Origin: an uncultured Candidatus Saccharibacteria bacterium
GTDB lineage: Bacteria > Patescibacteriota > UBA1384 > XYA2-FULL-43-10 > 1-14-0-10-43-13
Length of the DNA stretch: 64,000 bases
Assembly: GCA_964543385.1 (NCBI GenBank)
Contig: CAZIYE010000002.1
Location: 64,034-128,033, forward strand
Direction: 5' to 3'
Of this stretch, positions 33,519 to 57,200 are shown piece after piece. The notes beneath the pieces are model-generated. The model was not told the origin of the DNA. It searched no databases and was given only the letters and a program-made list of their open reading frames with translations. The stretch's first letter is position 1, and each line of letters opens with the position of its first letter. Made by a program: the position numbers and the translations under genes.

Positions 33519-33581
33519 TGTGTTCCTTTAAAATTATTATTGTGAAATTTGATAATCAAAATTTAACAAATCTGCAAAGTG

Positions 33582-34627: not shown

Positions 34628-34694
34628 CTGAGGGAAATAAAGATCTCTGTACTTTCATCTTCTTCTTTATCTGGACCAGTGTTATAATTACATC

Positions 34695-35498: not shown

Positions 35499-35511
35499 TT
35501 TGTTGGTAAAA

Positions 35512-35979: not shown

Positions 35980-37600
35980 GGGCGTCGTAAGGCTTTTTAC
36001 TTAGAATTGGCATCGAGAAAAAGAAGGTTGTGCCTTTGTCAGCGCCATCGGAGTGAAACCAAATTTTACCTTTTTGCAATTCAACAAATTTCTTAGATAT
36101 ATACATGCCAAGTCCGGTGCCCTTGACTTCGTCTTTAAGCACATCTACCTGAGTGAATTTCTCAAAGACTGCCTGCTGGCGATCTTTTGGTATTCCCTTG
36201 CCATTATCCTCAACCGATATAACGATTTTTTGATCATCGTTCATAACTCTGACGACTATTTTGCCGCCATCGGGAGTGTATTTTATCGAGTTTCCGATGA
36301 CATTAATAAGTACTTCAGTAATACGAGTAACGTCAAACCAAGTAGGTGGCATTTTGTGCTTAGGCTCTTCGAAAGTCAGTGTATGTTTGGCTTCTCGTGC
36401 CTTCGACATCACTTCAGTGATTGCTTGACTTATAACATCCTCGACAGGCTTTTGTTCCCAGATGATATGGATTCGTCCAGACTCAATCCTGGAGACATTT
36501 AGGAGGTCTTTTACCATATTTGCAAGCCTTGTAGCGGATTGAAATACGCTATCGAGGTAAGTGCGAGCTTTATCAGGGATCTTGCCACCAAGACCCTCGA
36601 TCAAAATCATAGAAAGGTAACCCTTGATCGCAGCGATAGGGGTATTGAGTTCATGCGATGCCATGGACAAAAAGTCATCTTTCAATTTATCCACTTCCTT
36701 TAGATGATCATTGGCAGTCTCAAGATCTTTGGCAAGTTTTTGAATTTGTTCTCGACGTTTTATTTCCTGCTTGACAGACTTAATAAGTAAATATCCACCA
36801 ATGGAAACCAAACAAAAGATTGTTGCATTGATCAAAAATTGGTTAAACGTTTTCGATAATATAGTTTGAGTTCCTATGGCAATAATTACGATTATAGCAC
36901 TGGCTTCTGTTAAAATTACTTTTATATCAAAAAGTCCCTTTGCTACCATTGCATAGGTTGTGAATCCAACAAATGGTAGAACGAAATATGTGCCGAGGTA
37001 TACAAAATTATCGAGCTTAAATACCAAAACGAGTATGAGATTAAAGAATATCATTAAAAAGAACATTGATGAAACTCCAGTAAAGATAAATTTTATTTGT
37101 TCTCTTATAAAACCTTCGGCCTTTAGAAATTTTTTTATTAATAAATAAAATCCTGTTCCTATAGAACCAACTGCAGTAACTAGAAACAGTAACATGCCAG
37201 GGCCAACTTTTGGGCTTCTAGTATTGTTCACGGCATCGATTTCAACTCCAGGGAAGAATATAGGGGACATCACAACCGCAATAGTTGCAACAACTACGAT
37301 GGAATAAATAAAATAAAATTTACGTTTAAATGGCAGTTTTCCCTCTGGGAAAGCTTGAGCAAATAGAAAGAAAAAAACGGACTGAAGTACAGCGAAAACC
37401 ATTACTAATCGCATGAGAATTAAAATAGTATTATAATCTTGGGCAAGCACAGAAAAATAATTTGAAACAGACCATAAAACTAGTGAAAGGGTCAAGTAAA
37501 AAAATAAAGTTCTTAGGGTTTTGTTTTTGGACTTTGTTAATGCAATTATGCCCAGGACTAGATTTAGGGCTGCACCCAGAATAAGTATCAGCGCGTTCAT
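35951..37600 (-). CDS. membrane sensor histidine kinase (polytopic N-terminal sensor + HisKA + HATPase_c)
   Basis: 549 aa with about 8 N-terminal TM helices, a coiled-coil linker, H-box SHELNTPIAAIKGY and G-boxes DNGKGIP and GTGLGMYISKKF. Confidence 0.8.
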   Translation of the reverse strand: MNALILILGAALNLVLGIIALTKSKNKTLRTLFFYLTLSLVLWSVSNYFSVLAQDYNTILILMRLVMVFAVLQSVFFFLFAQAFPEGKLPFKRKFYFIYSIVVVATIAVVMSPIFFPGVEIDAVNNTRSPKVGPGMLLFLVTAVGSIGTGFYLLIKKFLKAEGFIREQIKFIFTGVSSMFFLMIFFNLILVLVFKLDNFVYLGTYFVLPFVGFTTYAMVAKGLFDIKVILTEASAIIVIIAIGTQTILSKTFNQFLINATIFCLVSIGGYLLIKSVKQEIKRREQIQKLAKDLETANDHLKEVDKLKDDFLSMASHELNTPIAAIKGYLSMILIEGLGGKIPDKARTYLDSVFQSATRLANMVKDLLNVSRIESGRIHIIWEQKPVEDVISQAITEVMSKAREAKHTLTFEEPKHKMPPTWFDVTRITEVLINVIGNSIKYTPDGGKIVVRVMNDDQKIVISVEDNGKGIPKDRQQAVFEKFTQVDVLKDEVKGTGLGMYISKKFVELQKGKIWFHSDGADKGTTFFFSMPILSKKPYDAHDGEGEVLH

Positions 37601-37627
37601 TTCCCTCCTATGATTAGCAATCAGATA

Positions 37628-38746
37628 TTATTTTAATTTACTCAAAAATTCTTTGGTATGATCAGCTCTTTTCTTTACGGAATCGTCTGAATAATAGTTT
37701 GGTATTAAAGCGCCATCTATAGAAACATGTAATCTTCCGTCCATAATAGGATTGTTCATGGCTATATTTCTAATAATATATGAGCCTACTGATCCTGCTA
37801 ACATTGATGCTGTAGATAGCTGGGGCCATGTCTTTATTGTTTTGCCCACCTCGAGTAATGAGTCTTGCATACGGCTGACGGCGTTTTGGGGTTGAACAAT
37901 TTTTAGAGATAGAGTTACGCGGTCCTGCGGCGATAGTTTGCCATGACTATTTTTGATAAGTTTGATGTCTTCTTCTGATATTAAGCCGTGGAAAGGTTTC
38001 AAGCTAGATTTCAAGTCATATCTTTCTATGTCAACCATAACATTATCACCATTATCGGTAATCATTATTAAAGGTATTTTTTTATCTTTAGCTATTAGGC
38101 GCATATGAAGCTTCAGATGCAGGCTGTCTATCTCGTCAAAAACTATATCAGAATCTTTTACAAATTCATCAATATTGTCTTCACTTATACCATCAGAGAA
38201 AATTTGAACATTTATATACGGATTTATCTCATAAATTCTTCTTGCTAGAGCGATGGTTTTCTTTATATTAACGGATAGTAGCTCTGTTACAATTCGATTC
38301 ATATTCGATGTGGAAATTGAATCACCATCAGCAATCTTAATGTTTTTGCATCCGCCTTGCATAACAGTAGCTAATACAATATTACTGCCAACGCTTAGGC
38401 CGGCAACTGCAAGATTTGTATTCCGATATTTATCTTGTTCGGCGTGGTTTATTAAATATTTGTTGCGCGATGTTAGAAGAGTATAAAAGTCATTCTCTTC
38501 TAATGCCCTTATGACTGTTTTTCTCCATGGATAGACCACCAATGTCCCCAAGGTCTCTTGTTTAAACTCTGACAATGTCAATTGTAGGTCAGCTTCTTTG
38601 CCTATACATGTCAGTTCAACCAATTCTTCAGCTTGGCACTCAAATATGTCGCTATAAACATATCCTTCGGAATTGAGTTTCAGCAAAATACTATCAAGCT
38701 CTTCTTTTGAGAAAAAATTAATTATATCTGGTTTAAATTGATCCAT
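37628..38746 (-). CDS. ThiF/MoeB/E1-like adenylyltransferase family protein
   Basis: 372 aa with an E1 Rossmann core (NLAVAGLSVGSNIVLATVMQGG...IADGDSISTSNMNRI, cf. the E1 D.D....NL.RQ motif). Flanked by N- and C-terminal extensions. Confidence 0.6.
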   Translation of the reverse strand: MDQFKPDIINFFSKEELDSILLKLNSEGYVYSDIFECQAEELVELTCIGKEADLQLTLSEFKQETLGTLVVYPWRKTVIRALEENDFYTLLTSRNKYLINHAEQDKYRNTNLAVAGLSVGSNIVLATVMQGGCKNIKIADGDSISTSNMNRIVTELLSVNIKKTIALARRIYEINPYINVQIFSDGISEDNIDEFVKDSDIVFDEIDSLHLKLHMRLIAKDKKIPLIMITDNGDNVMVDIERYDLKSSLKPFHGLISEEDIKLIKNSHGKLSPQDRVTLSLKIVQPQNAVSRMQDSLLEVGKTIKTWPQLSTASMLAGSVGSYIIRNIAMNNPIMDGRLHVSIDGALIPNYYSDDSVKKRADHTKEFLSKLK

Positions 38747-40305
38747 TGCTGTTTACTCCCTCTATCGTTACTAATTGATCCATAAGGCATGAATACAACT
38801 CTAGGCTTAGCCTTTTCTTGGCCAATTTTTTCAACAAGAGTTTTGTATTCATAGTTGTTCTTTAGAAGATTCGAATAAATCTTTTCTCCAACATTTTTTT
38901 TTAATTCATCATTTGGTTCGATATTCTTATTCAATTCAACGGCTATTTCAATATATTGATTTCTTAAATCATCATACTTCGTGGTCATCGACATTCTAGT
39001 TGTCAATTTATCTATAATAGCTTGATCTTCAAGCCCTTTTCTAACTGTCTGCGGATAGATATTCAAGCCGTAGAGAGTAATCGTTTGGTCTGATTTCCCG
39101 TAGAGGACAATGAAAGGTAATTTCCATATGGGAAGATTTAGTTTCTTGGCCTCTTCTAAAATATCTATACCTTCATTTTTAAATAAATTAATCATTTCAT
39201 GGAAGCTATAGATAGTTCCATAATCGTGGAGGTTATAATCTAAAAGTGGCATTCCACCGACAGTAGAGCAAATTAATTCATTGTCTACGCATTCAAAGTG
39301 TTTTAAATGTGGATGATATTGAACAAAAGTAGAAACCGTTCTGCCATTGAAGAGTTTTTCAAGCAGCTTATCATTTTTGGCACATAGTCTTTTTATCATG
39401 ATGCTAATAGGGGTCTCATGTCCAAGAATTGCTGCGTCAGCTGATCCATATGTATTCACGCTAGAATTGTAGTAGTCTTTAATCTTTGCTTTCTTGTACA
39501 AATATTCGCGCCAATCTTCACTTATTGCCTCTGCGCCAAAGATGAATTTAAGGTTATACGAACCCCAGTCAAATCCCCTGGAAATACCTTCTTCAATTGT
39601 ATCCTTTACAAAAGGAGGATATCCGCAGATCACTATTTGCTCATAGTTGTTTCCTATTTCGCTAATAATTCTTAAAATGCTGTCCATGGAAATACCTGGA
39701 GTTATGACGGAAAGATCATACCCTCTCTGTGCTATTCTTAGGCAGGAATTTAGCGTAAATACACCGGCAACATACATACCCATTGAATAGGCATCGACTA
39801 TTAATGTTCTTTTCTTGTCTATGTGAAAAAAATCCTTCAAGATCATCTCATAAATAATCGTTGTTTCTAGCTCCAAGTAATTGCCTCTAGGCCAAAAATA
39901 CGGTTTTCCGCTTGAACCAGAACTGACAGAAACCATCTTAATGGAGTCCATATAATTGCCGGGAAGTAGTTCTGAAATAGGATATTCGTGCAGGTAATTT
40001 TTTTTGTCTATAAAACGGTTCGATTTGTTTGCTGAAAATTGCTTATAGGCGGGGACACTATTTTTTATTTCGGCCTCAAGCTCTGAGTATATTTCTTTCG
40101 AATATTTCTCGATCTCTTTAGGGTCAGTATTTTTTAGATAATTTAAAGAAAAATCAACGTCATAAATTTTAAGAGCCTCAAAAAAAGGATTGCTTGAATT
40201 GTTAATCTGTCCAATTGCTTGGTCTTTAAAATATGGTTTTAATGTTGTATAGTTATTAAAGATACTTTTCATGATTCTAATATAGCATATTAAATTATGA
40301 GCCAC
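38722..40305 (-). CDS. PaaK/F390-synthetase-like adenylate-forming enzyme (ANL superfamily)
   Basis: 527 aa. AMP-binding P-loop SVSSGSSGKPYFWPRG matches the PaaK/CapK/LuxE-type motif SSGTTGKP. Overlaps the E1-like gene by 25 nt. True start may be MKSIF (40272), since the track start overlaps the divergent gene. Confidence 0.6.
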   Translation of the reverse strand: MAHNLICYIRIMKSIFNNYTTLKPYFKDQAIGQINNSSNPFFEALKIYDVDFSLNYLKNTDPKEIEKYSKEIYSELEAEIKNSVPAYKQFSANKSNRFIDKKNYLHEYPISELLPGNYMDSIKMVSVSSGSSGKPYFWPRGNYLELETTIIYEMILKDFFHIDKKRTLIVDAYSMGMYVAGVFTLNSCLRIAQRGYDLSVITPGISMDSILRIISEIGNNYEQIVICGYPPFVKDTIEEGISRGFDWGSYNLKFIFGAEAISEDWREYLYKKAKIKDYYNSSVNTYGSADAAILGHETPISIMIKRLCAKNDKLLEKLFNGRTVSTFVQYHPHLKHFECVDNELICSTVGGMPLLDYNLHDYGTIYSFHEMINLFKNEGIDILEEAKKLNLPIWKLPFIVLYGKSDQTITLYGLNIYPQTVRKGLEDQAIIDKLTTRMSMTTKYDDLRNQYIEIAVELNKNIEPNDELKKNVGEKIYSNLLKNNYEYKTLVEKIGQEKAKPRVVFMPYGSISNDRGSKQQWINLNQI

Positions 40306-41421
40306 AATAATAAAGAGGCAGCGCTTGTCCTGGGGGGACTAGGCTTAATAGGTGGGTCACTAGCCCAAGAACTTACAAAGAATTTTGACGTGTTTGTTGT
40401 GGACAGAAGAGAGCCTAAGGAAAAAAATGGAAGTGTGAAATATTATGTATCCGATGCGCTAAGTGTCTCAAGCCTTGAGAAGTTAATAATTGAACATGAG
40501 CCAAGACTAATCGTTAATTCAATAAATATAGCCACTATTTTTTCAGATAACCCTGAGGCAAACTATAAAAAGCTTGTTAAGTTTTACTATAGTTTGTATC
40601 AGATATTTAGTAAGATCTCACATCCGATACATTTCATTCAGATGGGGACAACTGGTTCTGGTGGACTAGGCTTTGATATTCCTTTTACTCATGGGGACAG
40701 AATAGAAGATCTCCCGATCATAAACAAGGCTGCTTTTGCCGGTGTTTCGACGGCAATGCTGACCCTTATGTCCAGGTCTTTTGGCCATAGAGTAAAAGTG
40801 TCGGAAATTAAACCAGGCTTGTCAATTTTTCGAAAAGATATTGTTAAAGAAAAATTTGATGGCAGTAACCTTATCCTTATAGATGGTGGTGAAAGTGGTT
40901 TTTATACATACAATGAACTAGCGCTCCTCACATGTTATATGGGTTTTACAACAGTAGACACGATCATTGATAAAGTTATGAAAATTATTGGTGGCGATAA
41001 AAGCTTCCATAATCACTGTGTTTATGACACGATAGGCAGTCTCAATGGTGCTATTATTACGCAAAATCACCTAGACCATTGGCGTTTGGTTAAATATCTT
41101 AATATTATGAAAAGACTGTCTGGCAAAGACTATATAATAGCTACGGGCAAACTTGGCCCTCCAAGCATCACAAGAGACTTAATTCTTACATACCTAAAAA
41201 AGGAAAATCCTGATGTCGACGAGGAATCTTTTGCTAAGAAAATCAAGGGTGATGCAAATATAGTCAATACAATAAAATTCATCAAGAAGAATGATAAAAC
41301 TCTTTATGAATATCTATTAACTGAATTGAATTACGAAAACTATCTCAAAGCTATATATACTAAAGATGAGCCGTGGGAAAACGTTAAAGCTATGTTGGCT
41401 AGACAGAAACTGATAGTATAG
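40297..41421 (+). CDS. NAD(P)-binding Rossmann-fold oxidoreductase-like protein
   Basis: N-terminal GxxGxxG (LVLGGLGLIGGSLAQEL). Transcribed divergently from the PaaK-like gene. Confidence 0.4.
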   Translation: MSHNNKEAALVLGGLGLIGGSLAQELTKNFDVFVVDRREPKEKNGSVKYYVSDALSVSSLEKLIIEHEPRLIVNSINIATIFSDNPEANYKKLVKFYYSLYQIFSKISHPIHFIQMGTTGSGGLGFDIPFTHGDRIEDLPIINKAAFAGVSTAMLTLMSRSFGHRVKVSEIKPGLSIFRKDIVKEKFDGSNLILIDGGESGFYTYNELALLTCYMGFTTVDTIIDKVMKIIGGDKSFHNHCVYDTIGSLNGAIITQNHLDHWRLVKYLNIMKRLSGKDYIIATGKLGPPSITRDLILTYLKKENPDVDEESFAKKIKGDANIVNTIKFIKKNDKTLYEYLLTELNYENYLKAIYTKDEPWENVKAMLARQKLIV

Positions 41422-41856
41422 ACTAATCCACAGTTTTTCTTTTGACAATCTATGTGATCGCAGCTAAACTATATCAGTTCGCCATACTCTTATAGTTTAT
41501 AGCGGACCTAGCTAATCATGGTCGTGCATTTATCTTGCTAGAAAGTGATGTGGCAACATCACAATAATCAATCAATCCTCAAGGACTGATTTTTATTTTG
41601 GGCAGATTCCGGCTGCTCTTGCCAATCCAACCGTCTGGTTGTGTATTCCGGCAGAACATCACTGACTATTTTATTGCACGTATTAGTCAACTAGATGTTA
41701 GCACTTTTCTATCCCTCCTGATCCACCCTGTTTGTAAAAAATGTGCAGATGGATCAGGATAGCGGTTTGTTCACTGTATAACCGCTGATAACAAATCAGC
41801 GTGTTGACAAAAAATCACACGCTGATTTTTGTTTGATGTTTATGTATAATTTACTT

Positions 41857-42432
41857 ATGAAAATTTTATCCAAAGAAAAATCTCGGGAGATATTAATCAA
41901 ATTATTATCACTTTTCCAATGCGATCAGTTTGAGAAGATGGATAAATATCTCAATTCAAAGCCATTCAGATTCTTCAAATTCTATGCAAGCAATTCTTGC
42001 GAGCTCCCATTTTTATTTTGGGATGAAAAAGAAGCCAAGAAGATATTTGATTCCGCGATTAGTATTAGTGGTGCGGTAAAGGATAGTGATGGTGGTGTAT
42101 ACGGTATTGGTAATTATGATTATTTAGATAAATTAGCAAACTTTTTGAAAACACAGGGCTTTGTAAATATATACGGCGCTGGTAATTGGGATCCCTTCGG
42201 CAATGTTGGTCACAGTGCCATTGGCCTAAATGTTAATGAAATTAGGGGTATTAGCAGACATAACTACGATGACATCTATTTCTTTGATGAAAATTTTACC
42301 TGGATGCTCGCATTTAATCATCATAGAAACGGATTTTTTGCCGGATCAAAAGAAATGATAGAAGATTTTTCATATTCAGTGCCCGAATTTCGCAAATACC
42401 TCAGAGAAGAATGCTCCTGCTGCGGGCTTTGA
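41857..42432 (+). CDS. hypothetical protein with C-terminal CSCCGL tail (gene A)
   Basis: The track ORF starts at TTG 41833; the first ATG is at 41857 (MKILSKEK). No known domain. Its last roughly 25 codons recur twice downstream (43251..43340 and about 46170..46218). Confidence 0.45.
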   Translation: MKILSKEKSREILIKLLSLFQCDQFEKMDKYLNSKPFRFFKFYASNSCELPFLFWDEKEAKKIFDSAISISGAVKDSDGGVYGIGNYDYLDKLANFLKTQGFVNIYGAGNWDPFGNVGHSAIGLNVNEIRGISRHNYDDIYFFDENFTWMLAFNHHRNGFFAGSKEMIEDFSYSVPEFRKYLREECSCCGL

Positions 42433-42779
42433 CTTATCCGCTAAGTTGACATTTGACACCCTTTAATTGCTTCTGTAGAATTTATGCATGGATACGTTAT
42501 GGACAAAATTTAGACCCAAACGCAAGTTGCGGGCTAAGTGTGTCTTTGAAGAACTCCAAATAGATAGGACCCCTCTGGGGCCCTTTTTTGTATCCTGTAC
42601 ACTCACAATCTAACGAAAGGAGGACTCCGGAGAATGGGAGCAATGTTGGTACACGTTTCTGCATTAGAATATCTCTCAGTGCTCGCTCTTCGGAGATTCT
42701 CCGAAGAAGACCTGCGAAGGATTCAAAAAGCAGAGGATTTCGCTACTGAGAAGTTGCAAGGCATATTGCGGCGTGATGG
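42410..42779 (+). repeat. 370-bp perfect direct repeat, copy 1 (gene-A 3' end + promoter + leader + first 49 codons of an HD hydrolase)
   Basis: Identical to 46198..46567 base for base. Imperfect similarity extends about 18 bp further upstream (42392 / 46180). Confidence 0.9.
42453..42481 (+). promoter_or_regulatory. consensus sigma70-type promoter TTGACA-17-TAGAAT (copy 1)
   Basis: ttgaca at 42453-42458, a 17-nt spacer, tagaat at 42476-42481. A roughly 146-nt leader follows, containing a terminator-like hairpin at about 42566-42589. Confidence 0.55.
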
Positions 42780-42834
42780 TGCCGCGGTCAATATTGCGAG
42801 ATTTATCTATACTGCCTTTCAAAATTCGCTGTAA
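42634..42834 (+). pseudogene. truncated duplicate of the SpoT-like HD hydrolase N-terminus (first 49 codons identical to 46422..)
   Basis: MGAMLVHVSALEYLSVLALRRFSEEDLRRIQKAEDFATEKLQGILRRDG, then divergence and a stop after 66 aa. The HD motif is absent. Confidence 0.6.
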
Positions 42835-42854
42835 ATGCCCTGACCCCCTATAGC

Positions 42855-43196
42855 CTAAGTGCTGTGGGGGGTCTTGATATTAGTTCTTTTAAAGCTGCCG
42901 CGGACAAGTTTAAAAGCCAAGCGTCCGTCCTTGTGCTGCATCGGTGTACCGATTAATTCTCCGCAATCACAAGTTAGATTTTTCAGGGTTGATTCGTCAT
43001 GTTCATTGGAACTATTAAAACTATCGGATATTATCCGGTTTATATAACAACGTTTGAGCCAACCAGGACCATCTTTCTGGTATAAAAATATCTTTTTTCC
43101 ACATTTAGCGCACCTGACGCGGGTAATCTTAGCAGTGCCGCCTCTGGCAGCCAGATATTTATCTCTTTTGATTTTGAATTGGTGTGACTGTTCCAT
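42855..43196 (-). CDS. zinc-ribbon hypothetical protein
   Basis: 113 aa with CxxC...CxC cysteine pairs (RCAKCGKK...CDCGE). GC-rich. Confidence 0.4.
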   Translation of the reverse strand: MEQSHQFKIKRDKYLAARGGTAKITRVRCAKCGKKIFLYQKDGPGWLKRCYINRIISDSFNSSNEHDESTLKNLTCDCGELIGTPMQHKDGRLAFKLVRGSFKRTNIKTPHST

Positions 43197-43250
43197 TATA
43201 AAAAATTATTCGAATCATTATTATATCAATAAAGATTTTTTTTCTCAATT

Positions 43251-43340
43251 ATGAGAGAGCAAGATGATTCAAAATTCTCATATTCAGTGCCTGAATATCG
43301 CAAATACCTCAAAGAAGAATGCTCCTGTTGTGGGCTTTAA
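43251..43340 (+). pseudogene. 29-codon fragment duplicating the 3' end of gene A (…FSYSVPEYRKYLKEECSCCGL)
   Basis: MREQDDSKFSYSVPEYRKYLKEECSCCGL is about 85-90% nt identity to the last roughly 75 bp of 41857..42432. Confidence 0.5.
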
Positions 43341-43518
43341 ATTTTTTAGTTCTGCATTACAGTAAAGCCAATTTGACAAAACAAATTGCTTAGAATATCA
43401 TCATATGAAACAAGCTTTATAGAAAGAAAAATATCTCCCAGACAAGTAAAATGTTGTTAGGGGATCATCTTTTTATAGGACAAAATATAGAATTTAAAAT
43501 CCAAGCAAGAATCAAAAA

Positions 43519-44919
43519 ATGAATGCCAATAATCAAAGAGTTGCTATAGCTGGACTTGGACCTCATGCCAAACGTATCTATATTAGGGTTCTCGCAAATT
43601 ATGAAATTCAACCAAAATTAGTAATAGATATACAGTCTTCTGAGGAAAGTGTTAGGAAATTTCTAAGAGAGCATAAAATCAAATGTGATCTATATTTTGT
43701 ACCGGATAAAAACAAAGATCTTAGGCGTCTTTCCGGAGAAGACAAGAAAAATATTGCACGTCTCCTCAAAAAAAATAAAATCAATAAAGCAATAATATCT
43801 ACAGAACCAAAATCTCATGTCGCATATGCGGAATTTTTTTTGAAACAGAAGTTGCCAGTTCTAATGGATAAGCCAGTTACGGCCATAAAAAATGCATGTT
43901 TCGATGATCGCCTTGCCCAGCAAATCTATAAAGAATATAAGCATCTGAGAGATATGTCTATTCAAAATGATGTTCCTCTAGTAATCCAATCTCAGAGGAG
44001 ATATCACGGTGGATATATCTTTATCAGGGAATTACTTAAAGATACCATATTAAAATATGGTATTCCGGTTACGCATATGGATATTTATCATTGTGATGGT
44101 CAATGGAATATGCCAATAGAATACATTACTAGGGATAATCATCCTTTTAATTATGGGTATGGTAAGGTTTTACATAGTGGCTATCATTTTGTTGATTTCA
44201 TGAGTTGGATAGTAGCTCTTAACAATTTATTACCAGACAAAAAGCCGGATTGTTTCGATGCTATTCACAAGACAGTTAAACCTCAAGATCAACTCTTTCA
44301 ACTTAATGAAAGCTATGAAAAACTTTTTGAAAAAGAGTTACCAGGATTGCCAGAGAAAGATTTTTCCAAAATGGGTGAACTAGATTCTTACTCATTTATG
44401 CAATTCAAAAGAGAGGGCAAAGTAGTCACTTCTGTAAATCTGAATATGTTGCACAGTGGATTTTCTCGACGGGCTAGTTCTGAATTGGCCAAGGATGTTT
44501 ATAAAGGTAATGGCAGGGTAAGGCATGAGAGAATAAATATCCAGATTGGTCCGATACTCAATATACAAGTTCATAGTTATCAATCTTATGAAATCAAAGA
44601 TAGCAGTTATTCAAAGAAAGAGATTGAACCTGGCGGTTTAGACCACTTCGATATTTATATATTCAGGAATTCTGGTATTATCGGTGGCAAGTCGTTCGAA
44701 AAAATTCAGGTCTCCAACCGGAGCCGTATCAATAGGAGAACGCACATGGGCCATAATGAGGAAGCCAGGGAAAGGTGCACAAAAGATTGGTTACAAGGAA
44801 ATGAGAGTGAGAATGATGTGTTAAAACACAAGCTCACTAATTTAGTTATGTCTACCCTATATCGCTGTTCTGCCAAGGAAAATTTAGGCAGATTCCCATA
44901 TATGGAAGTTAAACTGTAG
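43519..44919 (+). CDS. Gfo/Idh/MocA-family oxidoreductase (with extended C-terminal region)
   Basis: N-terminal Rossmann region VAIAGLGPHAKRIYIRVL...ISTEPKSHVAYAEFFLKQKLPVLMDKP carries the EKP-type motif. Confidence 0.6.
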   Translation: MNANNQRVAIAGLGPHAKRIYIRVLANYEIQPKLVIDIQSSEESVRKFLREHKIKCDLYFVPDKNKDLRRLSGEDKKNIARLLKKNKINKAIISTEPKSHVAYAEFFLKQKLPVLMDKPVTAIKNACFDDRLAQQIYKEYKHLRDMSIQNDVPLVIQSQRRYHGGYIFIRELLKDTILKYGIPVTHMDIYHCDGQWNMPIEYITRDNHPFNYGYGKVLHSGYHFVDFMSWIVALNNLLPDKKPDCFDAIHKTVKPQDQLFQLNESYEKLFEKELPGLPEKDFSKMGELDSYSFMQFKREGKVVTSVNLNMLHSGFSRRASSELAKDVYKGNGRVRHERINIQIGPILNIQVHSYQSYEIKDSSYSKKEIEPGGLDHFDIYIFRNSGIIGGKSFEKIQVSNRSRINRRTHMGHNEEARERCTKDWLQGNESENDVLKHKLTNLVMSTLYRCSAKENLGRFPYMEVKL

Positions 44920-44957
44920 TTTGACAATCAAATCCAAGTACGAGGGGGAGCTGAAAG

Positions 44958-45650
44958 ATGCCGGTTACTGTGGCGTTTGACGGTTTGAATCGATGCGGTA
45001 AAGGCACCCAGGCAGCATTGCTGCAGTCTCGCCTTCGCGAGATGGATGTTTTTTCCGTGATCATCAGAGGCGACGGTTCGAGGGATGGCTTGGGATTGAC
45101 ACCAGGTGATCCAGAAGACCTCTGGTGGCAAGGCTTCAAAAGCTGTCTAAAGGGCAGCGAAGGGACAACGCGCTGGTTCGATAAATGGAATGAAGCAGCG
45201 TGTCGCTTAGCGCATGAATTAATTTGCTGGCAGGGAATAACATTCCCTCAAATGCTGAAAGATTCAGGGCGTAAAAGCGGAGTCTTACTTATCGATCGGA
45301 GCATTATTTCCAGAATTATGGTTATGCGGCAAGCCGGAGAGTATAACGGTTTAAACAGCCTGTATACTGTCGGAGGCGAGCCACAAGACATTGACTGGGA
45401 AGAGGTGCTACCCACAGTGCTGTTCAATTTCCATGTGCCCCAAGAGGTACTTCTGGCACGGTTGGATCATGATGATCCAAAGTATCAGTTCCGAAAGGGC
45501 ATTATCGAACAGCATTTCCAACTCCATGTCTCTGTTTCTAGGGAGCTGCCAGAAGAAATTTTAGGCAGAACAATCCCTTTGAACGGCGACAATGAGCTTG
45601 AGGTTATCCACGAAGAAATATCTGCGGTAGTGGAACCTCTATTGCATTAG
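44958..45650 (+). CDS. thymidylate-kinase-like P-loop protein with divergent Walker A (GLNRCGKGTQ), GC-rich
   Basis: VAFDGLNRCGKGTQAALL resembles the dTMP kinase motif (I)AFEGIDGSGKSTQ. GC is about 52% against a roughly 33% background. Confidence 0.45.
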   Translation: MPVTVAFDGLNRCGKGTQAALLQSRLREMDVFSVIIRGDGSRDGLGLTPGDPEDLWWQGFKSCLKGSEGTTRWFDKWNEAACRLAHELICWQGITFPQMLKDSGRKSGVLLIDRSIISRIMVMRQAGEYNGLNSLYTVGGEPQDIDWEEVLPTVLFNFHVPQEVLLARLDHDDPKYQFRKGIIEQHFQLHVSVSRELPEEILGRTIPLNGDNELEVIHEEISAVVEPLLH

Positions 45651-45713
45651 TGCGGGCAGAGTGTGGGGCAGGACGCCCCACACCATAATTTGAAAAAGTA
45701 ATAAAAGGAGTAT

Positions 45714-46142
45714 ATGAGGCACAGTTTTGATTCAGTGAATGTCAGTACAATAATTTTTAATAGAAAAGGACAGGTTCTTTTGGGAAAAAGAAGTATGGAC
45801 GAGGATGTATATCCCGGACTTTGGTGTGTGCCTGGAGGCAAGATAGATGTGGAAGCCTGTGAAGGTGAAATTATCGAGAACAATTTAAAAAGAGAGGTGA
45901 AGGAAGAGATAGGGATAGAGATAGAACCTCTCTTTTATCTTGCTAGCAATTGTCTTATAAAAGGAGACGAGGCAAAATTATATCTGATGTTTGTATCAGA
46001 GCATGTTGCCGGTGAGCCATTTGCACTTGACGGTACCGAAGAAGTTAAATGGTTTGAAATCGATGAACTAACACCAGAAATGCTAACGCCTAAAACCTAT
46101 GACAATATTCAAAAAGCGAGTGACAAAAGAATATCTCTCTAA
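45714..46142 (+). CDS. Nudix hydrolase
   Basis: Nudix box GGKIDVEACEGEIIENNLKREVKEEIGI. Confidence 0.75.
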   Translation: MRHSFDSVNVSTIIFNRKGQVLLGKRSMDEDVYPGLWCVPGGKIDVEACEGEIIENNLKREVKEEIGIEIEPLFYLASNCLIKGDEAKLYLMFVSEHVAGEPFALDGTEEVKWFEIDELTPEMLTPKTYDNIQKASDKRISL

Positions 46143-46197
46143 AAATATCTAGACAATTTCGAAATCTTAATTTATTTCCGCAAATATCTCAGAGAAA

Positions 46198-46567
46198 AAT
46201 GCTCCTGCTGCGGGCTTTGACTTATCCGCTAAGTTGACATTTGACACCCTTTAATTGCTTCTGTAGAATTTATGCATGGATACGTTATGGACAAAATTTA
46301 GACCCAAACGCAAGTTGCGGGCTAAGTGTGTCTTTGAAGAACTCCAAATAGATAGGACCCCTCTGGGGCCCTTTTTTGTATCCTGTACACTCACAATCTA
46401 ACGAAAGGAGGACTCCGGAGAATGGGAGCAATGTTGGTACACGTTTCTGCATTAGAATATCTCTCAGTGCTCGCTCTTCGGAGATTCTCCGAAGAAGACC
46501 TGCGAAGGATTCAAAAAGCAGAGGATTTCGCTACTGAGAAGTTGCAAGGCATATTGCGGCGTGATGG
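46198..46567 (+). repeat. 370-bp perfect direct repeat, copy 2
   Basis: Identical to 42410..42779. It is preceded by a 16-codon remnant of the gene-A tail (…YFRKYLREKCSCCGL*) at about 46170-46218. It contains promoter copy TTGACA(46241)-17-TAGAAT(46269). Confidence 0.9.
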
Positions 46568-47057
46568 CACACCAGCCATTGAGCACTCAAGAGCACTTGC
46601 ACTCAAAGCATGCGAGCTAAAACTGTCAGCAAACGCTATAGCGATTGCCTGGTTGCACGATGTGTTGGAGGACAACCTCAATGTCACATCGTGGGACCTG
46701 TACTGTTTGTTTGGAGTCGTCCATGGGGCGATCATCACCAACGGCGTAATAGCCTTGACACAATGCGACTGGATGTCTGACGAAGTGTACTTCAATAGGA
46801 TCGAAGTTGCATCCTCAGTCAACTGGGAGATTGTAGTCGTCAAATTAATTGATCGCTGGCATTTCCATTCGGACTTTTACAACGGTCCGGAGAAGAAAGA
46901 GCTAGCCAAGATTGACCAGACACAGAAGATCTTCCAGCAGACTATCAGAAACTGTGAAGTATTAGTTCCGGAAGATTTCCGGTCGACATACAATCAGTTG
47001 CTGGATGAAGTACTGGAGCTTGCAGAAATCCGGCAAGCTGAACTAATGGCCGCATAG
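46422..47057 (+). CDS. HD-domain protein resembling the (p)ppGpp hydrolase domain of RelA/SpoT (small alarmone hydrolase-like)
   Basis: 211 aa. HSRALALKACELKLSANAIAIAWLHDVLEDN matches the Rel/SpoT HD region (...HPLEVA.IL.ELGLD...AALLHDVVEDT). RBS AAAGGAGGA lies upstream. Confidence 0.55.
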   Translation: MGAMLVHVSALEYLSVLALRRFSEEDLRRIQKAEDFATEKLQGILRRDGTPAIEHSRALALKACELKLSANAIAIAWLHDVLEDNLNVTSWDLYCLFGVVHGAIITNGVIALTQCDWMSDEVYFNRIEVASSVNWEIVVVKLIDRWHFHSDFYNGPEKKELAKIDQTQKIFQQTIRNCEVLVPEDFRSTYNQLLDEVLELAEIRQAELMAA

Positions 47058-47132
47058 GCTCTGTCCACGATGGACCGAGCCTATTGCATTTTTATATTAG
47101 AAAAATTAATCAAGTTATGCTATAAAAATAAT

Positions 47133-49304
47133 ATGAAAGAAATTGCAAAAGCCTACGACCATCAACAATTTGAAGAACCCATCTATAAGCACTGGGAAGA
47201 CTCTGGTTATTTTAAGCCTGAAATAAATATGGGCAAAAAGCCAGAATATGACAGAGAAATTGACGGTAAGCCTTTTGTTATCTCTATGCCACCGCCGAAT
47301 GTAACAGGTAAGTTACATGTTGGCCACTCGTTGTTTATTACATTGCAAGATATAATGATCCGATATCATCGCTTGAAAGGCGAACCAACTCTTTGGCTGC
47401 CAGGAACAGATCATGCAGGTATTGCCACTCAAACTGTAGTCGATAAAATGCTTAAGAAACAAGGAATCGACAAGCGAGAGCTTGGCCGTGAAAAATTCAT
47501 TGAAGAAGTGTGGAAATGGAAAGAAGAGTACGGAGGTACTATTACTAGACAACTCCGTCGTATGGGCGCTTCTTGTGACTGGTCAAGAGAGAGATTTACG
47601 CTTGATGAAGGCCTTAGTTTCGCTGTTCGTAAAGCCTTTGTTGATCTCTATAAAAAAGAGCTGATATATCAGGGGCTTAGAGTTGTGAACTGGTGTCCTC
47701 GTTGTCGTACAGCTATTGCTGATGATGAAGTCGAATATCAAGAACAGAAATCAAAATTATATTGGATCAAATATGGTCCCTTTGTATTGGCGACTACTCG
47801 TCCTGAAACTAAATTAGGTGATACTGCAGTTGCGGTCAATCCAAAAGATAAAAGATACCTTGATATGGTTGGCAAAAAGTATATGATTCCGGGAGTTTTA
47901 GGTGAATTTGAGGTCATAGTGGTTGCTGACAATGCGGTTGATCCCGCGTTTGGTAGTGGTGCGGTAAAAGTCACTCCCGCACATAGCTTCGCGGACTACG
48001 AAATTGCTCAACGTCATAACCTTTCAATGAAGCAGATAATCGATGAAAATGGTCGTATGATGGCTAATACTGGTAAATATGCCGGAATGAAGACCTCTGA
48101 GGCCAGAGAAGCCATAGTGGCGGACATGGACAAGCTGGGATTAATTGATCATGTAGACGAATATGATAACAGTCTTCCGACTTGCTATCGTTGTGGAGGA
48201 ACTATCGAGCCGATTCCATCGAAGCAATGGTTTGTTAAGATGAAAGATCTTGCCAATAGGGCAAAGAAAGTTGTTGAAGATGGAAAAATGGATATAATTC
48301 CTGATCGTTTCAAAAAGTTGTATATCCAATGGATGGAAAATATTCGCGACTGGTGCGTGTCTCGTCAAATTTGGTGGGGTCATCAGATCCCAGTTTGGTA
48401 TAGGGGTGATGAGATCTATTGCGGCATGGAAGCTCCCGATGGTAAGGATTGGAAACAGGATCAAGATGTGCTCGATACTTGGTTTTCCTCTGCCTTGTGG
48501 CCTTTTTCAACCCTTGGTTGGCCAGGGGAGACAAAGGACTACAACTATTTTTATTCCACAACAGTAATGGAAACTGGTTATGATATTTTGCCTTTCTGGG
48601 TAGCTAGAATGGCTACTTTTGGTCTCGAATTTACCGGCAAGGTACCTTTTGAAACTGTTTATTTTCACGGCCTAGTTCGCGATGAAAAGAATAGGAAAAT
48701 GAGCAAATCTCTTGGCAATGTTTTAGACCCTCTCGATATTATTCCAAAATATGGCACGGATGCTCTTAGGATGGCGCTTGTAGTCGGTTCAGCTCCTGGT
48801 CAAGATTTAGCAGTAGGGGAGTCAAAGATTAAGGGCTATCGTAATTTCTCTAATAAAATATGGAACGCTTCCCGGTTTGTTCTGCTGCAAGTTTCAAATG
48901 GGGATTTAAGAACCGGTGAAATTGGTGCAGCAAGGTTAGATAGTTTAGACATAAACAAAGCAACTCTAACTAATCAAGACAAAGCTATACTAAAGGATTT
49001 AGAAAATGTTAAAAAGTCCGTCACGGAGAAATTAGACAAGTTCAGATTCTCTCAAGCAGGAGAGGAATTGTATGAATTTTTCTGGCATACATTTTGTGAC
49101 ATCTATATAGAAAAAGCAAAAGAACAAATTGCAGATGAGAAGTTCAAGGATAATACTAAAAAAATATTGATAAAAATCCTCTCTGAATCCCTAATCCTTC
49201 TTCATCCTTTTGTGCCTTTCGTCACTGAGGCTGTATGGCAGGAGCTTCGGAAGGTATATCCAGATCTCTCCAAATCCATCATGATTTCAAGATGGCCTCT
49301 ATAA
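47133..49304 (+). CDS. valS: valine--tRNA ligase (compact form)
   Basis: PPPNVTGKLHVGH (HIGH) and KMSKS motifs are present, with a ValRS-like editing/CP1 region. Start set at MKEIAKAYD (47133); the track starts at 47070. Confidence 0.9.
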   Translation: MKEIAKAYDHQQFEEPIYKHWEDSGYFKPEINMGKKPEYDREIDGKPFVISMPPPNVTGKLHVGHSLFITLQDIMIRYHRLKGEPTLWLPGTDHAGIATQTVVDKMLKKQGIDKRELGREKFIEEVWKWKEEYGGTITRQLRRMGASCDWSRERFTLDEGLSFAVRKAFVDLYKKELIYQGLRVVNWCPRCRTAIADDEVEYQEQKSKLYWIKYGPFVLATTRPETKLGDTAVAVNPKDKRYLDMVGKKYMIPGVLGEFEVIVVADNAVDPAFGSGAVKVTPAHSFADYEIAQRHNLSMKQIIDENGRMMANTGKYAGMKTSEAREAIVADMDKLGLIDHVDEYDNSLPTCYRCGGTIEPIPSKQWFVKMKDLANRAKKVVEDGKMDIIPDRFKKLYIQWMENIRDWCVSRQIWWGHQIPVWYRGDEIYCGMEAPDGKDWKQDQDVLDTWFSSALWPFSTLGWPGETKDYNYFYSTTVMETGYDILPFWVARMATFGLEFTGKVPFETVYFHGLVRDEKNRKMSKSLGNVLDPLDIIPKYGTDALRMALVVGSAPGQDLAVGESKIKGYRNFSNKIWNASRFVLLQVSNGDLRTGEIGAARLDSLDINKATLTNQDKAILKDLENVKKSVTEKLDKFRFSQAGEELYEFFWHTFCDIYIEKAKEQIADEKFKDNTKKILIKILSESLILLHPFVPFVTEAVWQELRKVYPDLSKSIMISRWPL

Positions 49305-49590
49305 ACAGTCTTTAGTAGTAGTCAGCTGTTTGTCGATTAAATAATTTCTATTTGGTCTTTTCTATATTGTTTTAGTTGTCATATTCTAGGATTATTTTGT
49401 TAAATATCATTAATCAACATTATTGCCACAAATGGTTGGATTTTTAGCAAAAACAAGTAGTAAACAGCATAAAAAAGAACAGATAGCTCAAAAAAGAAGG
49501 CAAAGATTTCGAGCTAAGCTTTGGCAGCACAGTAATAAATATGTTGACATGTGGTTTAAAAAAATTAAAAGTTTTTTTAACAGGAGATAG

Positions 49591-50094
49591 ATGGCTGGAA
49601 GAAGAAAAAAGCAAATAGCAATCGGTACAATCATGGCCCTTATAATTATTCTTGTAGTTGTATTCTTTTATGGAATTAAGGCAGATAATAGGCAGGATAA
49701 TCCAGAAATAACAAGTATACGGACTGATAGCTTTGATGAGAAAGTACATAATGTAGAGCCCGACAAAGCGTATTTAAGAAGTATAGATACAGAAGGGTTT
49801 GGTTTAACAAAAAGGATCTATGCAAACGGCAAGTTTATGCATACTGTGAGTGCAAGTTTGCCGCTAGTAGAGGATCCGGAGTTTTACCAGGGATGGCTTG
49901 TTAAGCCTGGCAATGATGTTGATAAAGAAGAATTTATTGCGACAGGAAAACTTATTTATACTGAGAGTGAATTTTTTCTCTTTTATGAATCGGATCAGGA
50001 CTTGAAAGATTTCTCAAAAATTATAGTTTCGAAACAGATTCAAAATGATGCTGTTCCTAATAGCTATGTTCTAGTCGGATCATTTGCAAACTGA
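49591..50094 (+). CDS. hypothetical membrane-anchored protein
   Basis: 167 aa with a single N-terminal TM helix (IAIGTIMALIIILVVVFFYGI). Confidence 0.4.
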   Translation: MAGRRKKQIAIGTIMALIIILVVVFFYGIKADNRQDNPEITSIRTDSFDEKVHNVEPDKAYLRSIDTEGFGLTKRIYANGKFMHTVSASLPLVEDPEFYQGWLVKPGNDVDKEEFIATGKLIYTESEFFLFYESDQDLKDFSKIIVSKQIQNDAVPNSYVLVGSFAN

Positions 50095-50165
50095 TTTTGA
50101 CAAAATAGCAGATATCGCCTAATATAAATGTATTAAATTATTTAGGCAAAAACCAAGGAGAGCAT

Positions 50166-50630
50166 ATGAGTAACAATTTAAAAACTTTTCTATTCATACT
50201 TTTAGCAGTTTTCTTAGTTTCTGGAGGGCTTATCTTTATAAGCGCAAAGTCAAAGAAAAGTGCTGATAGCAATACAACTACCCAAAGCGAGGACGGCGGA
50301 GTAGCTGGTGCGTCGACTCAGGACGAAAAAAGTGAAGGGAAAAAAGATAGCGCTTATATTGAAAAGTTGGCAAAGTTTATGGCTGAAAAGGGTATGGTCA
50401 TGTTCGGTGCATATTGGTGCCCGCACTGTGTCGACCAGAAAAAGCTTTTCGGTGATGCCTTCAAATATGTTGACTATGTTGAGTGCGATGAGAAGGGTCC
50501 AAATGCAAATCCAGACGAATGTGTGGCAAATGGAATAGAAGGATACCCAACGTGGGTTTATCAAGGTCAGCAATACGGTGGCTATAAATCTTTCTCCGAG
50601 CTTGCAAAAATAGTAGGATTTAACGAATAG
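50166..50630 (+). CDS. membrane-anchored thioredoxin-fold thiol-disulfide oxidoreductase (CPHC active site)
   Basis: N-terminal TM helix. Active site FGAYWCPHCVDQKKLF is a DsbA-like CPHC motif. Confidence 0.6.
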   Translation: MSNNLKTFLFILLAVFLVSGGLIFISAKSKKSADSNTTTQSEDGGVAGASTQDEKSEGKKDSAYIEKLAKFMAEKGMVMFGAYWCPHCVDQKKLFGDAFKYVDYVECDEKGPNANPDECVANGIEGYPTWVYQGQQYGGYKSFSELAKIVGFNE

Positions 50631-50651
50631 TATTATAAAGGTCTCTTAAGG

Positions 50652-50680
50652 AATGTCCCAAGAAATTGGGACATTTTTTA
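50652..50680 (+). terminator. rho-independent terminator
   Basis: Hairpin aatgtccca agaaat tgggacatt followed by TTTT. Confidence 0.6.
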
Positions 50681-51031
50681 AATAATAGTTCTTGTTATCT
50701 GTGCGATGTTGTTATTCGGATTGCAAAAGCAGCGCAATTAATGGTAATTGCTTGGGGATAACCCGTGTTATTAATTTAAAATTTAAAATTTAAAATTTCA
50801 GCAAGTGCGTTTGACAAGATAAAATTAACAGCTTCAGCATTTACTATTTTATATGATTACGGATCGTTAATTATAGATTATTTAATTTCGAGCACATATT
50901 TGTTGACAGTTGAGCTTAGACACGAATAAAATATTAATTAAGTAATCGATTATAAGGCTATCAATATTTTCTGTCTCCTTCTGTGAGCTGAAAGTAGAGG
51001 CGCCAATATATACGGAAGGAGGTGAATTAGA

Positions 51032-51175
51032 ATGGAAGCATATTGCGTAAAATGCAAGGCTAAGGTTGAGATCAAAAATCCTCAATCAATTACTATGAAA
51101 AATGGTAAGCCAGCAACATCAGGTGAGTGTCCAGTTTGTGGCACAAAAGTTTTCAGAATTGGCGCTGCTAAATAG
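51032..51175 (+). CDS. small zinc-ribbon protein (47 aa)
   Basis: Strong RBS GGAAGGAGGTG lies 8 nt upstream. Product MEAYCVKCKAKVEIKNPQSITMKNGKPATSGECPVCGTKVFRIGAAK has CxxC...CPxCG pairs. Below the ORF-track cutoff. Confidence 0.45.
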   Translation: MEAYCVKCKAKVEIKNPQSITMKNGKPATSGECPVCGTKVFRIGAAK

Positions 51176-51284
51176 TTTTCGAATAAATTTTTGTTTTTGA
51201 TAAACGCAAGAGTGTCCCCGTACATCGGGGGCATTTTTGTGGAGAATTGAAAAAAGTCGGCAGAAGTATTATATTTTATATATT

Positions 51285-52700
51285 ATGAAAAGATCAGAAT
51301 TGTTTTTTGCCTTTCTACAAGTGCCCGTTGACGCAGCCATGATGGTGTTCGCTTTTGTCGCCTCCTATTATTTGCGAATGGGGCTAGAATCAGTACCTGA
51401 TTTCAACAACATTGGCGTTGATGATTATTTGAGATACGCACTATTTTTGATTCCCGTATGGATACTAATTTTTGCTGCCAATGGGCTGTATTCAATAAAA
51501 AACACGACTGGTTTTTTGTTTGAGTTATATAGAATAGCCATTGCTACATCTGCAGCTATCTTATTTTTTATCATGATAATTTTTTTCACCAAGACACTAT
51601 TCTTTTCTAGATTAATTTTAGGATTCATCTGGATCATCAGCGTTGTAGCTCTCATGACGGGGCGTTTATCATTGAGATTAGTAAGAAAATATTTGTTAAA
51701 AATGGGTTTGGGCGTAAGGAATGTATTAATTATTGGCAATAACATTGTTTCCAAAGAAATCAATTACGAGCTTTCGCGTACTTACTCCGGGTTCCATGTT
51801 GTCGGTGTTCTAGGAGAAGAGGATCATCTTTCTACGGGTCTTAAAGTTGTCGGTGATCTTGATAATCTTCCGATGATTATCAAGAAGTATGGGATTGATG
51901 AAGTTATTCTAACTGAAAGCAAGATAAGTGAAACTAAAATGATTGATATCATCGAGAGTTGTTATGACCTAAAAGCTGGGTTTAAATATATTCCAGATGT
52001 CTTTGCTCTTATGTCGGCTAATTTTAAACCAGGATTAATAGGGTCTATGCCTGTAATGGAATTAAAATCTATCCCACTAGACGGTTGGGGAAGAATTATC
52101 AAAAGAATTTTAGACATAGCTCTCGGCCTAATTGCCTTAATTATCCTTTCGCCGTTATTTATAATTATCGCAATAATTATAAAGCTTTCTTCTAAGGGCC
52201 CTGTGATGTATCTGCATCAACGTGTTGGTCGGGATGATAAAGTATTCAATTTTTATAAGTTTCGCTCGATGTATTATGACCAGTGTGATTTTAAGGGCGG
52301 AGTCTATTGGACTACTAAAGAAGATGAAAATACTAGAATAACGCCTGTAGGTAAAATACTACGAAAAACCAATTTGGACGAATTGCCACAGCTTTGGAAT
52401 ATAATAAAAGGAGATATGAGCTTTGTCGGTCCAAGGCCAGAGCTACCAAAACTGGTTGAAAAATTTGAAAAAGAAATTCCTGAATATTTCAGACGACACA
52501 AGGTAAAATCAGGACTAACAGGATGGGCTCAAGTGAATGGATTAAAAGGGGATACTTCAATAAAAGATAGGGTAAGATATGATATCTATTACATAGAGAA
52601 CTGGTCTTTGTGGTTAGACTTCAAAATTATTATTAAGACGATATGGCTGGTTATTTATGAAATCTTCAACGGAAAGTTTGAATATCGCTCTCGTTCATGA
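51285..52700 (+). CDS. polyprenyl-phosphate hexose-1-phosphate transferase (WbaP-like bacterial sugar transferase)
   Basis: N-terminal TM segments and a C-terminal bacterial sugar transferase domain (...ILSPLFIIIAIIIKLSSKGPVMYLHQRVGRDDKVFNFYKFRSM...). The first ATG is at 51285; the track starts at TTG 51237. Confidence 0.8.
   Translation: MKRSELFFAFLQVPVDAAMMVFAFVASYYLRMGLESVPDFNNIGVDDYLRYALFLIPVWILIFAANGLYSIKNTTGFLFELYRIAIATSAAILFFIMIIFFTKTLFFSRLILGFIWIISVVALMTGRLSLRLVRKYLLKMGLGVRNVLIIGNNIVSKEINYELSRTYSGFHVVGVLGEEDHLSTGLKVVGDLDNLPMIIKKYGIDEVILTESKISETKMIDIIESCYDLKAGFKYIPDVFALMSANFKPGLIGSMPVMELKSIPLDGWGRIIKRILDIALGLIALIILSPLFIIIAIIIKLSSKGPVMYLHQRVGRDDKVFNFYKFRSMYYDQCDFKGGVYWTTKEDENTRITPVGKILRKTNLDELPQLWNIIKGDMSFVGPRPELPKLVEKFEKEIPEYFRRHKVKSGLTGWAQVNGLKGDTSIKDRVRYDIYYIENWSLWLDFKIIIKTIWLVIYEIFNGKFEYRSRS

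Positions 52701-55067: not shown

Positions 55068-57200
<2,133 letters not shown>

Follow-up and report, generated by a model that had tools for sequence, protein, structure and literature searches.

Identical 370-bp direct repeats around a four-gene accessory block in a Saccharibacteria genome: a variable site probably shaped by homologous recombination

A 3.4-kb block with four accessory genes sits between two copies of the same 370-bp gene junction in DNA of an uncultured Candidatus Saccharibacteria bacterium, within an analyzed stretch of 64,000 nt (hereafter, the window). The structure is probably the product of a very recent recombination event in a strain-variable accessory region, with a horizontally mobile cargo and RecA-type homologous recombination as the mechanism. 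Read in this way, the locus is an ordinary homologous-recombination footprint at a variable site and no new kind of mobile element.

The positions of the features are given in Table 1. The two repeat copies (R1 and R2) are direct, identical at 370 of 370 positions and offset by 3,788 nt. Toward the left, the similarity extends to 42388 and 46176, giving 392 nt with three mismatches, all of them in the first 22 nt (p ~2e-4 under a uniform spread). This confinement of the mismatches to the 22-nt left end places the left edge of the repeat inside an older, diverged tail. A preliminary description of the locus, made from the sequence alone, had reported identical 370-bp repeats with imperfect similarity further upstream, each copy holding the last codons of gene A, a TTGACA-17-TAGAAT promoter, a leader of about 146 nt and the first 49 codons of an HD hydrolase gene, truncated upstream and intact downstream; the same parts were found in both copies, with a leader of about 145 nt. 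Gene A runs unbroken into R1, and the intact HD gene runs unbroken out of R2. This arrangement agrees with the Campbell-type (single-crossover) topology proposed earlier.

Table 1. Features of the repeat-bracketed locus (window coordinates).
Feature	Position	Strand	Remarks
Gene A, intact	41857..42432	+	191 aa, C-terminal CSCCGL; last 23 nt inside R1
Imperfect continuation of the repeat to the left (tail 1 side)	42388..42409	+	3 mismatches vs 46176-46197
Repeat copy 1 (R1)	42410..42779	+	gene-A tail (23 nt), HD promoter, leader, HD codons 1-49
Sigma-70-like promoter TTGACA-17-TAGAAT	42453-42481, again 46241-46269	+	also conserved in relative L006
Conserved leader	42489..42633, second copy 46277-46421	+	~145 nt; fold z = -2.55
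Truncated HD ORF	42634..42834	+	66 aa: 49 native and 17 unrelated codons; also called on L011
Predicted hairpin between truncated HD ORF and zinc-ribbon gene	42842..42873	.	13 pairs
Zinc-ribbon protein	42855..43196	-	113 aa; conserved CxxC...C...CxC; no family match
Tail 2, 3'-end remnant of a gene-A allele	43262..43340	+	within 29-codon ORF 43251..43340
Spacer	43341..43450	+	orthologous to gene-A downstream sequence in relative L003 (sequence comparison)
Promoter TTGACA-17-TATCAT in the post-tail-2 spacer	43373-43401	+	motif
Gfo/Idh/MocA-fold oxidoreductase	43519..44919	+	466 aa; weak GFO_IDH_MocA match
Thymidylate-kinase-like P-loop protein	44958..45650	+	230 aa; weak Thymidylate_kin match; GKG instead of GK[ST]
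Nudix hydrolase	45714..46142	+	142 aa; strong Nudix match
Tail 3, gene-A remnant	46176..46220	+	14-15 codons (FRKYLREKCSCCGL, then stop); last 23 nt within R2
Repeat copy 2 (R2)	46198..46567	+	continuous with the intact HD gene
Small SpoT-like HD-domain protein, intact	46422..47057	+	211 aa; weak HD_4 match

Gene A, for which two alternative in-frame starts exist (41833 and 41842), is the only complete one of three copies of its 3' end. The 23-nt core of this tail occurs three times in the window when up to three mismatches are allowed, compared with zero occurrences expected by chance. The third tail of the preliminary description, a 29-codon ORF put at 85-90% identity, was recovered as tail 2, with 88% identity over 69 nt or 90.6% over 64 nt; seven codons differ from tail 1, five of them synonymously and two conservatively. 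Since the differences of tails 2 and 3 from tail 1 are mostly synonymous, both appear to be left over from other alleles of gene A, unequal in length (79 and 45 nt, respectively), and the three tails fit the earlier suggestion that events followed one another at this 3' end. The 29-codon ORF was also considered as a real small gene or a RiPP precursor and rejected: no ribosome-binding site is visible, no such ORF occurs in relatives, and homology is lost through an indel just upstream. No extra gene-A tails were found in relatives. Gene A itself is possibly a CdiI-like immunity protein, judging from structural models, whereby the resemblance to polymorphic toxin/immunity proteins is weak (10% identity, one good model of five). 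In comparison with the orphan-module arrays of such loci (Rhs, CdiA/CdiI), 3' tails rather than 5' homology stubs are kept here, and a toxin gene is absent from the identified genes.

Tail 2 and the next 110 nt are orthologous to the end of gene A and its downstream spacer in the nearest relative. The enclosed DNA had been read as the likely result of circular-DNA integration or serial insertion; tail 2 and these 110 nt, however, are native gene-A context and not foreign. The close-relative comparison consists of one relative with two short contigs. Homology to relative L006 starts right past the gene-A stop and covers the promoter, the leader, the HD gene and ValRS. In the nearest relative, TruD follows gene A and guanylate kinase precedes the HD gene; in its two recovered contigs the module is absent both downstream of gene A and upstream of HD, and the window has no homologues of its TruD and guanylate kinase. 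The gene-A neighbors differ in all three relatives with recovered flanks (TruD, an ABC transporter and a contig end). An empty site, with gene A followed directly by HD, for which the preliminary description had advised looking, was found in none of the recovered relatives. Likewise, contig searches recovered neither a gene A-repeat-HD nor a Nudix-repeat-zinc-ribbon contig, an exact search with a 34-mer of the repeat gave no matches in JGI metagenome contigs and IMG/VR, and a gene-A profile scan of metagenomes returned one short contig only.

The gene content of the block agrees with what had been read from the sequence: a zinc ribbon (here, without a family match), a Gfo/Idh/MocA oxidoreductase, a thymidylate-kinase-like protein with an aberrant P-loop and a Nudix hydrolase. 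The predicted model of the oxidoreductase (pLDDT 87.7) has sugar C3-oxidizing enzymes as its best Foldseek matches, and its homologues include Nudix fusions. One of these, on a Bacillus tropicus plasmid, was considered as a functional clue and gave none, its neighbors being different; searches of solved-structure sequences with the oxidoreductase, kinase-like and zinc-ribbon proteins returned nothing useful. The oxidoreductase, kinase-like and Nudix genes recur in this order in other CPR genomes, with amino acid identities of 80, 67 and 81% in L026 and of 76, 57 and 78% in Parcubacteria GW2011_GWF2_38_76. Zinc-ribbon homologues lie near the module in both, adjoining it in L026 and in L027/L030. 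In comparison, the flanks of this neighborhood vary from genome to genome, the neighboring histidine kinase is only 31-46% identical, and bracketing by repeats was seen only here among the loci examined. The preservation of the neighborhood in other CPR genomes, including a member of Parcubacteria at 76% identity, indicates that the four-gene block moves horizontally. The module of oxidoreductase, kinase-like protein, Nudix hydrolase and zinc ribbon is widely shared and uncharacterized.

Base composition was rejected as a sign of foreign origin. The GC content of the cassette (38.8%) is close to that of the window (37.5%). The kinase-like gene, previously estimated at about 52% GC, proved to have 48.6%, with a maximum of 50% in any 400-nt window; as it is GC-rich in all three module-carrying genomes, its composition is no evidence of a separate foreign origin.

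The recombination reading requires no dedicated recombinase. DNA would have entered or been rearranged by RecA-type recombination, the homology being supplied by the 3' end of gene A together with the HD promoter region next to it. At least two layers can be told apart. Tails 2 and 3, short 3' remnants of other gene-A alleles, may stem from older events, while the latest would have copied the 370-bp junction of gene-A tail, HD promoter and HD 5' end, either by a single crossover with a circular intermediate (Campbell type) or, equally possibly, by tandem duplication of a 3,788-bp unit followed by deletion between tails. A point against this reading is that tails of only 42-79 nt, ~90% identical, would recombine inefficiently. 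The outcome would leave gene A whole at the left end and HD whole at the right, plus a dead HD stub of 66 codons, and the perfect repeats would allow the block to be lost easily through the reverse reaction. With cointegrates, suicide-vector integrants and amplifiable units the locus shares the identical repeats flanking an insert, the pair of intact and truncated genes, the reversibility by RecA and the dispensability of an own recombinase. It differs in that no circular form or empty site was recovered, the left edge lies in an older diverged gene fragment, and the insert is partly native gene-A context (tail 2 and spacer), not foreign. CPR genomes have few plasmids, insertion sequences and integrases, yet are naturally competent. 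Natural competence, with integration of DNA through homologous recombination, is a property of Saccharibacteria (PMC10633639), and uptake by competence may have supplied the DNA here. On this reading the locus would be a clear and datable case in which an ultrasmall CPR genome perhaps acquired and rearranged accessory genes through ordinary homologous recombination.

An alternative which we consider unlikely is that the chromosome carries the empty site next to a free 3,788-bp circle, or an actively excising and integrating mixture of both, and that the assembler threaded the loop once, so creating an integrated form that is rare or absent. The assembly data fit such a loop, and the k=31 graph would look the same for the integrated form and for a circle with an empty site: Logan k=31 contigs end exactly 30 nt into the repeat at every edge, and L001 (ending at 42439), L004 (spanning 42750-46227) and L005 (beginning at 46538) form exactly a loop graph. 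Related MAG records of the same study (SRP272421) are NODE-type co-assemblies, the assemblies behind the arrangement all appear to be of short-read type, and an assembler may cross a loop once by default; moreover, direct repeats of 370 bp without a mismatch should favor excision. In favor of the recombination reading, all four junctions are present in reads of several samples. Against a free circle stands a JGI contig from a separate metagenome (L011), which runs from gene A through the repeat to the zinc-ribbon gene at 100% identity. The cassette has no replication gene, and the same module is chromosomal on long contigs elsewhere. Besides, an uninterrupted empty site would encode the HD protein, whereas its full-length form is on record only from the 128,714-bp NCBI contig to which the window belongs, with none in the Logan and JGI assemblies. 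For genome curation, the locus is a warning that a 370-bp repeat produces a loop in short-read graphs, so that the order needs read-level confirmation.

It is quite improbable that the tails stem from serial integrative elements moved by a site-specific recombinase encoded elsewhere, with attB within the final 40-80 nt of gene A, every element bringing a replacement gene-A 3' end. Repeated target-gene 3' ends are the usual sign of islands inserted at gene 3' ends, and the tail core matches this picture, as it occurs three times and in each case restores or imitates the end of the gene. As in tandem genomic islands at tRNA or protein-gene 3' ends, several partial copies of the target 3' end accompany a target gene that stays intact; the differences here are that no integrase was found among the scanned ORFs, the unequal remnants and a repeat that continues well beyond the gene end. 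The latest repeat reaches 347 nt past gene A into the HD gene's own promoter and coding region, far exceeding the length of an att site, and the relatives have no extra tails. The absence of a recombinase, already stated in the preliminary description, was upheld among the scanned ORFs of the window: none was found in the cassette proteins (Pfam, NCBIfam, PHROG and PADLOC), and no integrase or transposase turned up in Pfam scans of most other window ORFs of at least 90 aa or in precomputed Pfam listings for 33459-42439 and 46538-59304, a few small ORFs falling outside this coverage.

Other classes of mobile elements were rejected on their hallmarks. An IS element or composite transposon disagrees with the lack of a transposase and of terminal inverted repeats at the cassette ends and with a duplication of 370 bp; an integron cassette, with the lack of an integrase and of attC-like imperfect palindromes at the boundaries and with the empty Rfam result in 41400-47100; a prophage or plasmid, with the lack of replication, structural or mobilization genes. 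IMG/VR and INPHARED contain no relatives of the oxidoreductase or the zinc-ribbon protein, and plasmid homologues are at most 38% identical.

A bolder version of the homologous-recombination reading, which we regard as rather doubtful, makes the conserved gene-A 3' tail a reusable docking site working without a recombinase, at which competent Saccharibacteria stack cassettes and the unit cycles between integrated and circular states. If true, it would amount to a simple integron-like gene capture in CPR bacteria. An assembly chimera, built from co-existing strains in which gene A and HD have differing neighbors and the two repeats never share one molecule, is highly improbable: the region is strain-variable, the source is probably a co-assembly and two independent contigs begin at 41528 and 41535, ~300 nt before gene A, but L004 crosses into the repeat on both sides, so that a linear carrier needs two copies and the circle is the sole alternative, and L011 backs the left linkage.

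Apart from the recombination history, the locus draws attention to a leader RNA that is conserved ahead of a gene for a small SpoT-like hydrolase. In this leader, a terminator-like hairpin at 42566-42584 precedes a U tract; whether at gathering or at permissive thresholds, Rfam gave no credible family for the leader or for the region 41400-47100. The truncated HD ORF is probably a non-functional fragment, and the 13-pair hairpin behind it could, from its predicted fold, act as a bidirectional terminator. The intact HD protein matches HD_4 weakly (23.2 bits, cutoff 27.2) and spoT_relA of NCBIfam with E=6e-9 at a score far below the family cutoff, and its HD motif WLHDVLED is invariant across homologues.

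Comparison of the window with itself revealed two identical segments at an offset of 3788, whose coordinates are collected in the table below. Similarity continues leftward for 22 nt more, to 42388/46176, giving an extended repeat of 392 nt with 3 mismatches, all inside the first 22 nt (p ~2e-4 for such clustering under an even spread); this would fit a junction falling within a diverged tail that was already there. Gene A runs unbroken into copy 1 and the small SpoT-like HD gene runs unbroken out of copy 2, while the copy-1 HD stub continues for 17 unrelated codons before a stop. The preliminary description had reported this repeat with imperfect similarity over about 18 bp upstream, and its account of the repeat, the ORFs, the promoter and the truncated/intact HD pair was borne out.

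Coordinates of the features discussed (window positions unless a contig is named)
Feature	Coordinates	Remark
Repeat copy 1	42410-42779	370 nt, identical to copy 2
Repeat copy 2	46198-46567	370 nt, identical to copy 1
Tail 2, gene-A 3' remnant	43262-43340	88-91% identical match at 43275-43340
Tail 3, gene-A 3' remnant	46176-46220	
HD leader	42489-42633, 46277-46421	counterparts: L006 (relative's HD locus) 1398-1545; contig L012 about 9868-10000
L001	33459-42439	Logan contig, SRR12261224
L004	42750-46227	Logan contig, SRR12261224
L005	46538 onwards	Logan contig, SRR12261224
L011	41528-43080	JGI contig, 1,553 bp, 100% identity
Start of L002 and L011	41528-41535	~300 nt upstream of gene A
Block directly upstream of gene A	37628-41421	
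Histidine kinases	5888-8065 (-), 35512-37600 (-)	each associated with Nudix
Short dispersed direct repeats	33263-33803	81-92% identity
Heliorhodopsin gene	27989-28753 (-)	Pfam E=1.5e-103
Region with the closest module homologue	L026 1-7500	module next to phage-like genes

The nearest relative available, from Logan sample SRR32414321 (HD protein 83% and gene A 77% identical), has gene A and HD at separate loci, the former followed downstream by TruD and the latter lying between guanylate kinase upstream and ValRS downstream. Nucleotide homology of its HD locus to the window begins right behind the stop codon of gene A (window 46220 = 42432) and extends across the promoter, leader, HD and ValRS, so the repeat is a composite: 23 nt from the gene-A tail are joined to the promoter, leader and first 49 codons native to HD. 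This fusion has a single origin and predates the duplication.

The assembled arrangement was supported by Logan k=31 contigs of SRR12261224, which match the window at 100% identity and break off precisely 30 nt (k-1) into the repeat at all four edges, so all four junctions are present in reads; L001, L004 and L005 are each listed by the database in 3-5 samples. Two repeat copies are required on any linear molecule that includes L004; the sole alternative is a 3,788-bp circle coexisting with an empty site. Such a circle is improbable, and the integrated form is favoured, because L011, from another metagenome, joins gene A, the repeat and the cassette, because the cassette lacks any replication gene, and because the module is chromosomal in other genomes. 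The supporting assemblies look like short-read co-assemblies. As L011 and the Logan contig L002 (SRR12261225) begin at nearly the same place, a second strain-variable junction may lie there.

With up to 3 mismatches allowed, a search for the 23-nt core of the gene-A tail gave 3 occurrences in the window where none would be expected, and the third imperfect copy claimed earlier (about 85-90% identical) was confirmed as tail 2. Together with the next 110 nt, which include a promoter (TTGACA-17-TATCAT), tail 2 is the orthologue of the end of the relative's gene A and the spacer downstream of it, so this stretch of the cassette is old gene-A context, not foreign DNA. Since most of the codon differences from the gene-A end at copy 1 are synonymous (5 of 7 in tail 2, the other 2 being conservative, and 2 of 3 in tail 3), both tails show the pattern expected of fragments from other functional gene-A alleles, not of decaying copies. 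No extra tails were found in the relatives examined.

From the topology we infer homologous recombination. The structure could have arisen by a single crossover of a circle bearing the repeat, or by tandem duplication of a 3,788-bp unit and a subsequent deletion between the gene-A tail and tail 3; tails 2 and 3 would reflect earlier events of like kind through the tails. Natural competence and the integration of DNA through homologous recombination are documented for Saccharibacteria (PMC10633639). Neither an integrase or transposase, in the cassette or among the scanned window ORFs including Pfam listings, nor terminal inverted repeats were found. IS elements, integrons, phages and plasmids were rejected as classes after their defining features had been sought and found lacking; an integrase island is judged unlikely, as no recombinase lay among the ORFs scanned. 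Overall, the structure adds one more case to a familiar category, the products of Campbell-type or duplicative recombination at a hotspot. The observation is solid and the mechanism ordinary; what it mainly offers is insight into CPR genome dynamics and a caveat for assembly.

Within the cassette, the Gfo/Idh/MocA oxidoreductase, thymidylate-kinase-like and Nudix genes make up a conserved unit of three, with amino acid identities to the window of 80/67/81% in Logan contig L026 and 76/57/78% in Parcubacteria GW2011_GWF2_38_76 (L027-L030), both with zinc-ribbon homologues nearby. The nucleotide homology spans the oxidoreductase start codon to the Nudix stop codon, adjoining histidine kinases are just 31-46% identical, and the module is absent downstream of gene A and upstream of HD on the two contigs of the close relative. 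Together, these features indicate that the module moves horizontally. It was not found in IMG/VR or phage records, and plasmid genes are only distant relatives. In L026 it adjoins genes for an SU10-type major capsid, a portal and an HTH repressor-like protein. Module GC is ordinary overall, the kinase-like gene being GC-rich wherever the module occurs, at 48.6% here and not the about 52% first stated. Oxidoreductase homologues include ~650-aa oxidoreductase-Nudix fusions, and the structural model (pLDDT 87.7) resembles sugar C3-oxidising Gfo/Idh/MocA enzymes; at most, a part in nucleotide-sugar or nucleoside processing may reasonably be guessed.

Conservation seems higher in the HD leader than in the coding sequence, much of the leader being identical to that of the 83%-identical relative, versus 79% across the HD-ValRS stretch. 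The leader carries a terminator-like hairpin and a U6 tract; the 3' half of the hairpin is predicted to pair with the ribosome-binding site, and the leader's architecture is also kept in a 57%-identical orthologue. No Rfam family matched the leader, a candidate attenuator or riboswitch-like element.

Elsewhere in the window, one histidine kinase has an N-terminal Nudix domain (Nudix-GAF-PAS-HisKA-HATPase) and the second, of HisKA_7TM type, adjoins a standalone Nudix gene. Kinases of the HisKA_7TM type are likewise found close to gene A or the module in L003 (the relative's gene-A locus) and L026, and L027 has a different histidine kinase close to the module; thus, Nudix genes and kinases recur together. 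The block upstream of gene A encodes a ThiF/E1-like protein (Rv1355c family, E=3e-82), a 527-aa protein without family match and a 374-aa epimerase-like protein, and is replaced by unrelated genes in L003. Around the short dispersed repeats are small genes that match KGG/LEA_5 only faintly, and near the heliorhodopsin gene there is a nucleotide-housekeeping run (HD, inositol monophosphatase family, HD_3, Ham1).
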